64,000 nucleotides of DNA from Escherichia phage vB_Eco_F27. Both the position numbers and the translations under genes were made by a program. Shown piece after piece: positions 1,391-53,875 of the stretch. Positions within the stretch are counted from its first letter, which is position 1, and every line of letters begins with the position of its first letter. The notes under the pieces are model-generated. The model was not told where the DNA came from. It saw only the letters and a program-made list of their open reading frames with translations, and ran no database searches. The DNA lies in sequence record OP870146.1, one strand, 5' to 3'.

Positions 1391-1637
1391 GACGTTGTTT
1401 CATTAAAGAGCCGTTCTTAGCGATTTCTTCCGGTTTATCGCACATACGCAACAAGGCTTCGAGCTTAACGATATCGCTGGTACGTTCAAATTTGCGAGTA
1501 TCTATCTTACTAGCAAGTTCAGAAATACGTGCTAATAGACTTTCGGCTTCAACCAAAGCTGCACCTAGCTTAGTTGCAAATGTGTCAGTAGCTTCGTTAA
1601 GAATAGATTCTGATAAAAATTCACTATATGTTTTCAT
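1356..1637 (-). CDS. internal head protein-like (N-terminus [10 protein letters not shown]), 93 aa
   Basis: ORF track trimmed from TTG at 1652 to ATG at 1635-1637; CTS-like N-terminus; overlaps the denV remnant by 35 nt. Confidence 0.5.
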
Positions 1638-2122
1638 ATATACGCTTTCCAAGTTCCTGTTTTAAATGTTGAGATTACGCGTTTCGCGCGATTAGGTGTC
1701 TGACGATACCATTTAGATTGGGCTAGATTTACTGCCGCTTCGTCCCAACGTTTCTGTTGAAGCATACGAAGAGAATTAGTAAAACCGGCAACGCCTGCTA
1801 CGCCCATTTGGAAGACCATATTGACCAATGCACATCGACGAACAGCATCTAAAGAATCATATACCGGTTTAAGTTTAGCATTACCCAAGATTCCGCGAAC
1901 GGCTTTATCAACGTCTTCATTAAATAGCTTTTCAGCCTCATCAAGGGTAATTGTACCGTTGCATTTACGACCGATCATTCTGTCAAGTTCAGCTTTAGCT
2001 ACGGCTAAAGAAGGGTTCTTTGTTACTAAATGGCCTATGCCAATCGTCCAAAAGCCTTCAGTGTCTTTGTATAAAGTCAGTCTAAGACCTTCGTCATTAC
2101 GAAGCATTTCAAATATATTCAT
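1634..2122 (-). CDS. e: lysozyme (endolysin, T4 gene e homolog), 162 aa
   Basis: Translation [32 protein letters not shown]... is near-identical to T4 lysozyme over the full length; ATG 2120-2122 with GGGAGGTA SD. Confidence 0.93.
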
Positions 2123-2124
2123 AA

Positions 2125-2148
2125 TACCTCCCACGTTTATAGGAGGTA
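2125..2148 (-). promoter_or_regulatory. hairpin in the lysozyme 5' leader that pairs with the Shine-Dalgarno sequence
   Basis: mRNA sense UACCUCC-UAUAAACGUG-GGAGGUA followed by UU-AUG; 7-bp stem, 3' arm is the SD; loop carries a late-promoter-like TATAAAC. Confidence 0.45.
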
Positions 2149-2156
2149 TTTATTAC

Positions 2157-2615
2157 TTATAGGAGGGTAGTGAGCACCTTATATAATGATTTGCCCATTA
2201 CATATTCCCATTGAGAAGGTTTAATTAAAGCGAATGCATCAAATTCAGGAATCTGACGTCCGTCTGGGAATGTATGATAGGAATTACAAACACTGTTTCT
2301 GAATTGCTCGTGCTCTACAGGGATGGTATATAGGAACAGATGAATATTCTTATTGTCTGAGTAATGATGTTCACCTAGGTCTTTCAGGAAGGCAGGGTCA
2401 TATTGTGTAAACCCAGTTTCTTCTTCGCATTCACGAATAGCGGCTTCAATAGGAGATTCGCCAGGTTCGACACGGCCTTTAGGAATATCCCACCGATGAG
2501 CTAATGCACCTTTAGGACGAGAACCAGTTACACGGCCCATGAATAATTCTTTATCTTTTGTCATGAAGATAATACCAGCGGACAACTCTTTCACTTTATT
2601 TTTCTTACTCATCAT
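2157..2615 (-). CDS. nudE: Nudix hydrolase (T4 NudE / e.1 homolog), 152 aa
   Basis: Nudix box GRVEPGESPIEAAIRECEEETGF; position immediately downstream of e as in T4. Confidence 0.8.
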   Translation of the reverse strand: MMSKKNKVKELSAGIIFMTKDKELFMGRVTGSRPKGALAHRWDIPKGRVEPGESPIEAAIRECEEETGFTQYDPAFLKDLGEHHYSDNKNIHLFLYTIPVEHEQFRNSVCNSYHTFPDGRQIPEFDAFALIKPSQWEYVMGKSLYKVLTTLL

Positions 2616-4350: not shown

Positions 4351-4379
4351 ACTATAACATAGTCCTATAATTGTGTAAA
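4351..4379 (-). promoter_or_regulatory. early (sigma70-type) promoter: -35 TTTACA, 17-bp spacer, -10 TATAGT
   Basis: Minus-strand sense GTTTACAcaattATAGGACTAtgTTATAGTAGTCCTAT; 9-bp inverted repeat around the -10. Confidence 0.55.
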
Positions 4380-10153: not shown

Positions 10154-10312
10154 TACGAAACGCCGGGATTCGAACCCGGTTATTGAGTAGTTGACGCTAC
10201 TCAATATTTTTAAAAGGCCATATCTCGACCATATCCGAACGTTCCGTCAAAAACGCTACTCGGCTTACGGCAAAGATATTTCCTCGAATCGATAATTCGG
10301 TGCGCCGTTTCT
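10154..10312 (-). ncRNA. tRNA-like small stable RNA (analogous to T4 rnaC/rnaD species); boundaries approximate
   Basis: 3' end has a canonical T-arm CCGGG-TTCGAAT-CCCGG followed by CGTTTCG, which can pair with GAAACG about 150 nt upstream; internal 8-bp hairpin TTGAGTAG/CTACTCAA; no ORF; sits in the tRNA cluster. Confidence 0.35.
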
Positions 10313-10414
10313 GCTGTGATGTAAGGGGATATTAACAAATCGTAAAGATTTATTAAGACCAGTCCTTACTCAGGGAACATCAGTCCGACGACTTACCGGT
10401 AGCGACCCGGCTTC

Positions 10415-10759
10415 TTATTTTGGCATATCATCAATTTGCTCTCGACGCCGACGCCATAGATTAATCGCTTCATAAACACATTCTGCGTTTGGTATATGAC
10501 GGCAATAATATAATGATTCGCGTTTCTGGAATCGATGTTGCAATGGGATTTCGTTTAAAAGGTCTTTACGGTCAAAGTATTCAAAACTAGTTAACCCGGA
10601 ACGGTTTTTAATGAACTTCCAATGACCAAATTCATTTTGAACATAGATGTAATCTGCATGTTGGTATAACAAATTAATCAATCGGTCTGAAATAACTGTA
10701 TCATGTTCGTTAAAATAAAACGTTAAATCATGAACTACTAAGTAAACATTACCTTTCAT
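10415..10759 (-). CDS. hypothetical protein within the RNA gene cluster, 114 aa
   Basis: ORF track trimmed to ATG 10757-10759 with GAGGAAA SD, 19 nt downstream of tRNA-Arg; no GIY-YIG or HNH motif seen. Confidence 0.45.
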   Translation of the reverse strand: MKGNVYLVVHDLTFYFNEHDTVISDRLINLLYQHADYIYVQNEFGHWKFIKNRSGLTSFEYFDRKDLLNEIPLQHRFQKRESLYYCRHIPNAECVYEAINLWRRRREQIDDMPK

Positions 10760-10777: not shown

Positions 10778-10854
<77 letters not shown>

Positions 10855-10954: not shown

Positions 10955-11029
10955 TGGTGGCCCTGGCTGGTTTCGATCCAGCTACCTATCAGTTATGAGC
11001 TGACAGCTCTCCCATTGAGCTACAGGGCC
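10955..11029 (-). tRNA. tRNA with CAU anticodon (elongator Met, or Ile2 if lysidine-modified), 75 nt, CCA encoded
   Basis: Manual cloverleaf: acceptor GGCCCTG/CAGGGCC, D-arm GCTC-AATGGGA-GAGC, anticodon loop CTCATAA, T-arm GCTGG-ATCGAAA-CCAGC; ends resemble E. coli tRNA-Ile2. Confidence 0.85.
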
Positions 11030-13437: not shown

Positions 13438-14172
13438 TTACCTTAAGATTGTTTCAATTTTAGAATAAAGCTCTTCTAAAGAGCCGTCGTTTGTAATAAC
13501 TAAATCGCCTTCTTCAATAGGCAACCCAGCTTCTGTAATATGTTTATCAGTGGATTCCGTACCAGAGCGAACCACATGAATAACTGTAGCACCCATCGCT
13601 CTAGCGGTTTCCATTTCATGGACTTGGCGTGTATCGGTTACAACATAGTAATCGAAATCACTTCCAATATAATCCATATAGTTTAATGCAAAAAGCTTAA
13701 CCCAATACATACGGTCAAATAAATTAACGACAACATCCGTACCGAGGGCTTGCATAAGACGGCGGATTGACCATGTGTCGTTGATATTATTTATAGCTTC
13801 ACGCAGGGCTTCATATGGTTTAATATCTAGATATGAATACCCACCTTCTAATGATGATAATACTTTAACATTATTAATTGGTAAATATTGACTTTGTAAA
13901 TAAATTAGCGCTTCTTCCAATAATTCAATAACATCCAACTTATTGATATTTAATGGTGTTTCACGGTCATATCCGACACCTTCAAAGTATTCGTATTTCA
14001 ACTCTGTGAATACATCAGGATCTTCAGCATGTTTACGTCCCCAGGCTATTGCTAGAGCGTCTTTAATCGGATATGCCAATTGGTATTTTACGGATTTAAA
14101 GTTTGAATTGATGTAATCAGCAGTAGTGTCTTTACCACTACGTTTGATGCCGCTTAAAAAGATTAGCTCCAT
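13438..14172 (-). CDS. 1: gp1 deoxynucleoside monophosphate kinase, 244 aa
   Basis: Translation MELIFLSGIKRSGKDTTADY... with P-loop; strong match to T4 gp1. Confidence 0.9.
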   Translation of the reverse strand: MELIFLSGIKRSGKDTTADYINSNFKSVKYQLAYPIKDALAIAWGRKHAEDPDVFTELKYEYFEGVGYDRETPLNINKLDVIELLEEALIYLQSQYLPINNVKVLSSLEGGYSYLDIKPYEALREAINNINDTWSIRRLMQALGTDVVVNLFDRMYWVKLFALNYMDYIGSDFDYYVVTDTRQVHEMETARAMGATVIHVVRSGTESTDKHITEAGLPIEEGDLVITNDGSLEELYSKIETILR

Positions 14173-16197: not shown

Positions 16198-16205
16198 TAT
16201 AAATA
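16198..16205 (+). promoter_or_regulatory. late promoter TATAAATA for gene 53
   Basis: Exact consensus about 40 nt upstream of the gene 53 start. Confidence 0.55.
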
Positions 16206-34490: not shown

Positions 34491-36807
<2,317 letters not shown>

Positions 36808-53863: not shown

Positions 53864-53875
53864 TATTTATAAATA
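53864..53875. promoter_or_regulatory. overlapping divergent late promoters TATTTATAAATA for gene 26 (minus) and gene 51 (plus)
   Basis: Both orientations of TATAAATA share the central TATA. Confidence 0.5.

Follow-up and report, generated by a model that had tools for sequence, protein, structure and literature searches.

A ribosome-site hairpin fused to a late-promoter element upstream of the lysozyme gene of a Mosigvirus: a probable T4-type translational switch

The DNA analysed here is a 64,000-nucleotide stretch of Escherichia phage vB_Eco_F27 (record OP870146.1), referred to below as the window. Its minus strand carries a gene for a T4-type lysozyme downstream of a co-oriented Nudix hydrolase gene, and the leader between them holds a hairpin and two elements that resemble late promoters of T4-type phages. 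The features considered are the following.

1634-2122, minus strand: gene e, T4-type lysozyme (endolysin), 162 aa, start codon ATG at 2122-2120 (open reading frame, phmmer, Pfam Phage_lysozyme match)
2157-2615, minus strand: nudE (e.1, Nudix hydrolase), upstream of and co-oriented with e (open reading frame; Pfam NUDIX, 5.7e-16)
2139-2150, minus strand: 5′ arm of the hairpin, AAUACCUCCUAU, holding the anti-Shine-Dalgarno sequence (anti-SD) CCUCC at 2146-2142 (minimum-energy and centroid structures)
2135-2138, minus strand: loop of the hairpin, AAAC (fold)
2123-2134, minus strand: 3′ arm of the hairpin, GUGGGAGGUAUU, holding the Shine-Dalgarno sequence (SD) GGAGGU at 2131-2126 and abutting the AUG (fold)
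2147-2154, minus strand: AATAAATA, the late (gp55-type) promoter proposed to operate here (P1); an A(-13) form of TATAAATA that aligns with the upstream TATAAATA of T4
2134-2141, minus strand: TATAAACG, counterpart of the second (loop) late promoter of T4, with two mismatches (-7, -6) and probably not functional here
4351-4379, minus strand: nearest strong match upstream to a sigma-70 or T4-early-type promoter, TTTACA-17-TATAGT with TG, which may give rise to early read-through (consensus scan)

Gene e runs from 2122 to 1634, and the hairpin, lying directly 5′ of this T4-lysozyme ortholog (ATG 2122), therefore acts on the minus strand. An earlier note on this DNA had named the downstream gene as lysozyme gene e; indeed, residues 1-161 of its product aligned with residues 1-161 of T4 lysozyme (phmmer, E = 2.5e-89), which also makes the start codon secure. 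The early gene nudE ends in a UAA stop codon at 2159-2157, 6 nt ahead of the stem, and the order nudE-then-e is common to T4 and RB69. In the RefSeq entry of RB69 (NC_004928; positions 10201-10674 of our locus L057), the annotated gene e begins at an internal ATG and so omits the first five codons of the T4-equivalent frame; ahead of that annotated start, the sequence is identical to that of the window, whose open reading frame aligns from T4 lysozyme residue 1.

Read as RNA, the minus-strand leader is 5′-AAUAAAUACCUCCUAUAAACGUGGGAGGUAUUAUG, also written 5′-CCUAUAAGUAAUAAAUACCUCCUAUAAACGUGGGAGGUAUUAUG. The 7-bp hairpin that the earlier note had proposed at 2125-2148, UACCUCC (2148-2142) paired with GGAGGUA (2131-2125), is present at exactly those positions and extends to a 12-bp stem (2150-2139 with 2134-2123) with two G-U pairs and the loop AAAC. 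Its 3′ arm contains the SD, as had been claimed. Folding of the leader, the check suggested at the time, gave -16.3 kcal/mol for the 12-bp hairpin, compared with a mean of -4.2 (sd 2.1) for shuffled sequences (z -5.7), and none of 200 shuffles equalled it. The 12-bp stem was the minimum-energy structure in 71-nt and 201-nt contexts as well, its 5′ arm appeared in the centroid and the minimum-energy structures alike, and the computed pairing probability of the gene e SD was 1.0 in read-through contexts. The TATAAAC element that had been placed in the loop is present at 2141-2135; it spans the distal stem and the loop rather than lying wholly in the loop, because the extended hairpin takes part of it into the distal stem.

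Within the window, the inverted repeat TACCTCC-N10-GGAGGTA was found once, at 2125-2148, with 0.00 matches expected (100 shuffles). Among 63 SD-bearing candidate starts, the start region of e was the most stable (mean -4.8, sd 3.3, next best -12.9). When about 128,000 33-nt windows on both strands were ranked by stability, the hairpin was among the five best loci; those of similar stability mostly looked like terminators. Rfam returned no family matching the leader, and in the whole window only two tRNAs, encoded on the minus strand at 10781-10854 and 10958-11029 (71 and 62 bits); RB69 also has two tRNA genes, for tRNA-Arg and tRNA-Met.

Two further hairpins were recorded elsewhere in the window. 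At 34532-34555 on the plus strand, the strong hairpin CCUCCCUGGAAUAUCUGGGGAGG (-15.9 kcal/mol) has the look of an anti-SD/SD pair but is internal to a coding sequence, a 164-aa open reading frame (34491-34985) directly before one of 611 aa, and the next ATG is out of frame; these two frames resemble terminase subunit genes 16 and 17. On the minus strand, in the region of about 14200-14175, a small hairpin CUCAUA-AAUU-UAUGAG covers the SD GAGG of a 244-aa open reading frame starting at 14172 (SD pairing probability 0.95, local fold -7.6 kcal/mol). This frame resembles T4 gene 1, dNMP kinase.

The late-promoter consensus of T4-like phages is TATAAATA at -13 to -6, in which T(-13) is poorly conserved and A or T is common (PMC1524935). 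Of 50 listed T4 late sites, 32 are perfect, nine carry A(-13), which is the commonest published variant, and just two differ from the consensus at two or more positions (PMC2988020). The box at the base of the stem, AATAAATA, is this A(-13) variant. Taking its last A as -6, transcription is predicted to begin (+1) near 2141, immediately after the CCUCC of the 5′ arm, and the anti-SD (2146-2142) fills -5 to -1 and would be left off the late RNA. Late promoters usually prefer AT-rich sequence just downstream of the box (PMC2988020); the corresponding segment of P1 is CCUCCU, and that of the mapped P1 of T4 is similar, CCTTCT. Across the window, TATAAATA was enriched (19 observed, 8 expected), with ten copies 10-45 nt upstream of an SD-start. 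Its variant AATAAATA showed no such enrichment (8 copies observed, 10.2 expected); three of these eight copies, including the one at e, lie 10-45 nt upstream of an SD-start, the most of any one-mismatch variant. Perfect TATAAATA boxes were also found paired on opposite strands, at 16198(+)/16220(-) and 53868(+)/53871(-). An SD-start follows 17-26 nt downstream at 53868/53871 and of 16220(-), and none was found downstream of 16198(+); such pairs are likely divergent late promoters.

By its closest matches, the window is assigned to Mosigvirus (RB69 group). Its first 20 kb share 98.2% identity over 97% with phage G2469, the best matches also include Mosigvirus mar005p1, and KAW3E185, which is classified as a Mosigvirus, gave a 99.2% leader match. 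Over the 121 nt that surround the leader, identity reaches 99% or more in 114 phage records and is complete in RB69; matching phage records number 766. For a wider comparison, 54 lysozyme loci were collected from IMG/VR, and adding T4 and the window to those that reached 60% protein identity gave 16 distinct leaders. These span at least six Tevenvirinae genera, namely Tequatrovirus, Mosigvirus, Gaprivervirus, Tegunavirus, Gelderlandvirus and a near relative of a Kanagawavirus, with the following loci among them.

L022: VR20, Gaprivervirus
L023: fHe-Yen9-01, Tegunavirus
L019: CGG4-1, 88.7% DNA match to STML-198
L021: taken as STML-198, Gelderlandvirus
L011: 93% identical to Enterobacter phage IME523, Kanagawavirus

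Each of the 16 leaders forms a hairpin whose 3′ arm holds the SD, with energies from -7.5 to -16.6 kcal/mol (z -2.3 to -6.6). Their arms keep the anti-SD and SD identity, in contrast to the variable loop and distal stem. Directly 5′ of the anti-SD, ATAAATAC is invariant in 16/16 leaders and thus conserved as strongly as the SD core, whereas the base preceding it varies (T, A or G); the geometry from P1 to the anti-SD is the same throughout. Since ATAAATAC is invariant also in the L011 (Enterobacter-phage) group, in which the stem base is unpaired, its conservation does not come from pairing but is explicable by promoter function. Distant lysozyme homologs (L025-L040, at most 62% identity) showed no comparable hairpin or promoter box, in agreement with a review that lists phages that have e but lack such a structure (PMC3014915).

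Covariation support for the stem is thin. In a hand-registered, N-padded alignment, which leans towards the structure because it was fitted to it, 79.7% of cells pair; sliding the partners lowers this to 39-52%. Changes on both sides were seen at only two pairs, one being a compensatory replacement of U-A by C-G inside the SD of VR20 (CCCC/GGGG). RNAalifold on an unsupervised MAFFT alignment recovered five pairs (-1.67 kcal/mol) with zero compensatory changes, few because stem registers and loop lengths differ among the genera. Weak covariation is in any case expected, as other functions (promoter, SD) also constrain both arms.

In T4, long early transcripts of gene e form an inhibitory structure that lowers lysozyme synthesis about 100-fold, and transcripts from either of two late promoters lack the 5′ strand and are well translated (McPheeters et al. 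1986, NAR 14:5813, as cited in PMC3014915). According to the same review, the e leaders of close T4-type relatives resemble that of T4, and in each a T4-type late promoter lies where the 5′ strand is encoded (Uzan and Miller 2010, PMC3014915). The T4 leader reads TTTATAAATACCTTCTATAAATACTTAGGAGGTATTATG, with the layout TATAAATA-CCTTC-TATAAATA-CTTAGGAGGTATTATG, in which the first of two perfect boxes (P1) overlaps the stem base and the second (P2) lies in the loop. Aligned nucleotide by nucleotide, the layout in the window is homologous to this, which agrees with the T4-type arrangement recognised in the earlier note. Common to both are the orthologous e with nudE upstream, the stem base AAUACC/GGUAUU, the anti-SD/SD stem core, a hairpin that abuts the AUG, and a late-promoter box joined to the stem at its 5′ base. 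They differ in that the window has AATAAATA upstream and the degenerate TATAAACG as its loop box, 2 nt nearer the AUG than the T4 counterpart, and in the stem, which is 12 bp with CCUCC and -16.3 kcal/mol in the window but 11 bp with CCUUC and -13.3 kcal/mol in T4. The T4 starts were mapped experimentally, and those in the window are predicted. We presume that RB69, whose leader is identical to that of the window, is included among the leaders in Figure 5A of Uzan and Miller 2010; RB69 is on neither of the review's lists, of phages without the structure or without gene e, and the review text consulted does not tell the conserved upstream promoter apart from the Tequatrovirus-specific loop promoter (PMC3014915). 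The same logic is described there for T4 I-TevI (the td intron endonuclease), soc and gene 49 and for Aeh1 mobE: in early and middle RNA that reads through, a helix holds the SD and/or AUG, and translatable RNA comes from a late promoter situated in, or adjacent to, the 5′ strand (PMC3014915). These are unrelated genes and sequences, and hence analogues rather than homologues of the e switch.

How far the RNA 5′ end governs access to the ribosome site was expressed as the computed cost of opening 2133-2118.

Read-through RNA: 15.7-16.0 kcal/mol, full hairpin
RNA from 2148 (weak TATAAGTA box): 14.2 kcal/mol, hairpin still forms
RNA from 2141 (P1): 4.1 kcal/mol, without the anti-SD
RNA from 2128 (loop box): 0.5-0.7 kcal/mol, SD truncated

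The same drop was seen in all 16 leaders, with early costs of 10.0-18.8 and P1-late costs of 0.7-8.3 kcal/mol. In the RNA from 2141, some predicted pairing of the SD with the coding sequence remains (about 4 kcal/mol). The TATAAGTA box (2161-2154) was considered as a third late promoter but discarded. Its position -8 is G, it runs into the nudE stop codon within a segment that is variable among Mosigviruses, it is missing from other genera, and RNA from its nominal +1 at 2148 is still predicted to fold into the hairpin. An upstream direct-repeat copy, CCCTCCTATAA (2167-2157), was likewise rejected as a second, selected anti-SD, as it is coding sequence and varies in close relatives (CCCTCC, CCATCC, CACTCC).

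Early transcripts of T4 do extend into e, as the review states (PMC3014915). In the window, the consensus scan placed early-type promoter matches on the minus strand at 4379-4351, at 5674-5646 and farther upstream, and between the first of these and gene e the strand holds a single weak terminator-like site (3132-3118). The minus strand also contains a repeated 19-mer, TATGTTATAGTAGTCCTAT, with exact copies at 4361-4343, 5656-5638, 12010-11992 and 12338-12320 and one with three mismatches at 8756-8738 (five matches, 0.06 expected). Three of these copies (4361-4343, 5656-5638, 8756-8738) coincide in part with T4-early-type promoter matches (TTTACA-17-TATAGT with TG), and strong hairpins enclose the 19-mer at 5664-5632 (-16.2 kcal/mol) and 12346-12314 (-14.5 kcal/mol). 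These repeats resemble the mobile 'promoter-early stem-loop' cassettes of T4-type phages.

Together, these features make it quite probable that the leader switches translation of the endolysin gene according to which transcript carries it, and that this system is homologous to that of gene e in T4. Early and middle RNAs initiated at sigma-70-type promoters upstream would read through nudE into e and carry the full leader, in which the anti-SD CCUCC would pair with the SD GGAGG. As the resulting hairpin reaches up to the AUG, it would block 30S binding, and for this reason lysozyme would not be made early. Once replication begins, gp55-RNA polymerase would initiate at AATAAATA (2154-2147); with P1 fused to the stem base and the anti-SD in the -5 to -1 segment of the promoter, the late RNA would start at about 2141 (5′-UAUAAACGUGGGAGGUAUUAUG), lack the anti-SD for that reason and be translated. 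For early read-through, the late 5′ end and the effect on translation, we argue from the T4 experiments and the published late-promoter consensus; the searchable literature returned no transcript 5′ ends or translation data for RB69 or other Mosigvirus phages. Late RNA had been proposed in the earlier note to start inside the hairpin, from the loop element. The predicted P1 start at about 2141 does lie within the hairpin, but the operative late promoter is probably the element at the stem base rather than the one in the loop.

That the SD is instead freed from the loop element, TATAAAC(G) at 2141-2134, as by the second late promoter of T4, appears unlikely. Although TATAAACG aligns with the T4 loop TATAAATA, one of two active late promoters of T4 in the literature, and fits the consensus at 6/8 positions, it deviates at -7 (C) and -6 (G), and deviation at more than one position is the rarity noted above for the listed T4 sites (two of 50, PMC2988020). 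RNA from the loop box would have a fully open start region, but with the box 2 nt nearer the AUG than P2 of T4, its nominal +1 (2128) gives 5′-GGUAUUAUG, leaving only GGU and thus almost none of the SD; a consensus TATAAATA in the loop with a +1 that leaves a usable SD (GAGG) is not found here. The window contains seven copies of TATAAACG, compared with 3.5 expected, yet only that of e is upstream of a start. Moreover, the leaders of Gaprivervirus, Tegunavirus, Gelderlandvirus and the Enterobacter-phage group, as well as L008-L010, lack TATAAACG and all retain the hairpin together with the upstream ATAAATA. The loop promoter of T4 accordingly looks specific to T4's own lineage. A published HMM scan of RB69 gave 31 late promoters and none near gene e (about 65.7 kb), and as the RB69 leader is identical to that of the window, neither P1 nor P2 passed that model; P1 would therefore be a sub-threshold site there, and its late start is one that we infer. 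Since the scan lists none at e and neither T4-mapped promoter is intact in Mosigvirus, late lysozyme in this genus might not rely on promoter switching, the hairpin being opened, for example, by an endonuclease cutting in the 5′ arm or loop, or by ribosomes that reach the nudE stop codon and terminate there; we regard this as very unlikely.

In several public records the hairpin is read differently. For KAW3E185 (MK373782; positions 468-491 of our locus L056, equal to window 2148-2125), ARNOLD reports a 'putative transcriptional terminator, -12.0', and other Mosigvirus records have a 'terminator' feature under the leader match. With a G+C-rich stem core 6 nt past the nudE stop codon, the hairpin could in principle act mainly as an intrinsic terminator or 3′-end stabiliser of the early nudE transcript, without translational control. 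Yet the stem is followed by AUGAAUAU, without a T-run, so that the G+C-rich hairpin lacks the direct U-tract of a rho-independent terminator, and the terminator scan gave no call. The 3′ arm is the SD itself, 0 nt from the AUG in most relatives, an alignment that a terminator does not need, and it is the anti-SD/SD identity of the arms that persists among relatives rather than the loop or the distal stem. The missing U-tract, this arm identity and the T4 read-through into e (PMC3014915) leave termination as the main role with very little likelihood; partial termination may occur as a secondary effect, and the ARNOLD label is probably a mis-annotation of an SD-sequestering hairpin. Short palindromes are common and covariation is weak, but nothing specific speaks for a functionless chance inverted repeat in AT-rich intergenic DNA. 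Such a repeat is effectively refuted by a chance expectation of zero, the z of -5.7, the first rank among SD-bearing start regions and the pairing potential kept in 16 distinct leaders from several genera, down to 60% lysozyme identity.

A translational switch of the T4 type at this locus would not be a new arrangement, being known from the T4 experiments of 1986 and from T4 relatives since 2010; the leader is identical to that of RB69, and confirmation of the switch in an RB69-type phage adds little in itself. For annotation, the comparison bears on the public records that label the hairpin as a terminator and on the internal ATG given for e in RefSeq RB69. Two modest refinements concern the conserved core and the lineage-specific loop promoter: across the Tevenvirinae genera compared, the leader alignment points to an upstream late box fused to an anti-SD in the -5 to -1 segment of the promoter as the part that is kept, apart from the loop promoter of the T4 lineage. 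For the phage, the switch would hold back the endolysin until progeny are assembled, by the choice of transcription start alone, and would be a compact example of a promoter and an RNA structure designed together.
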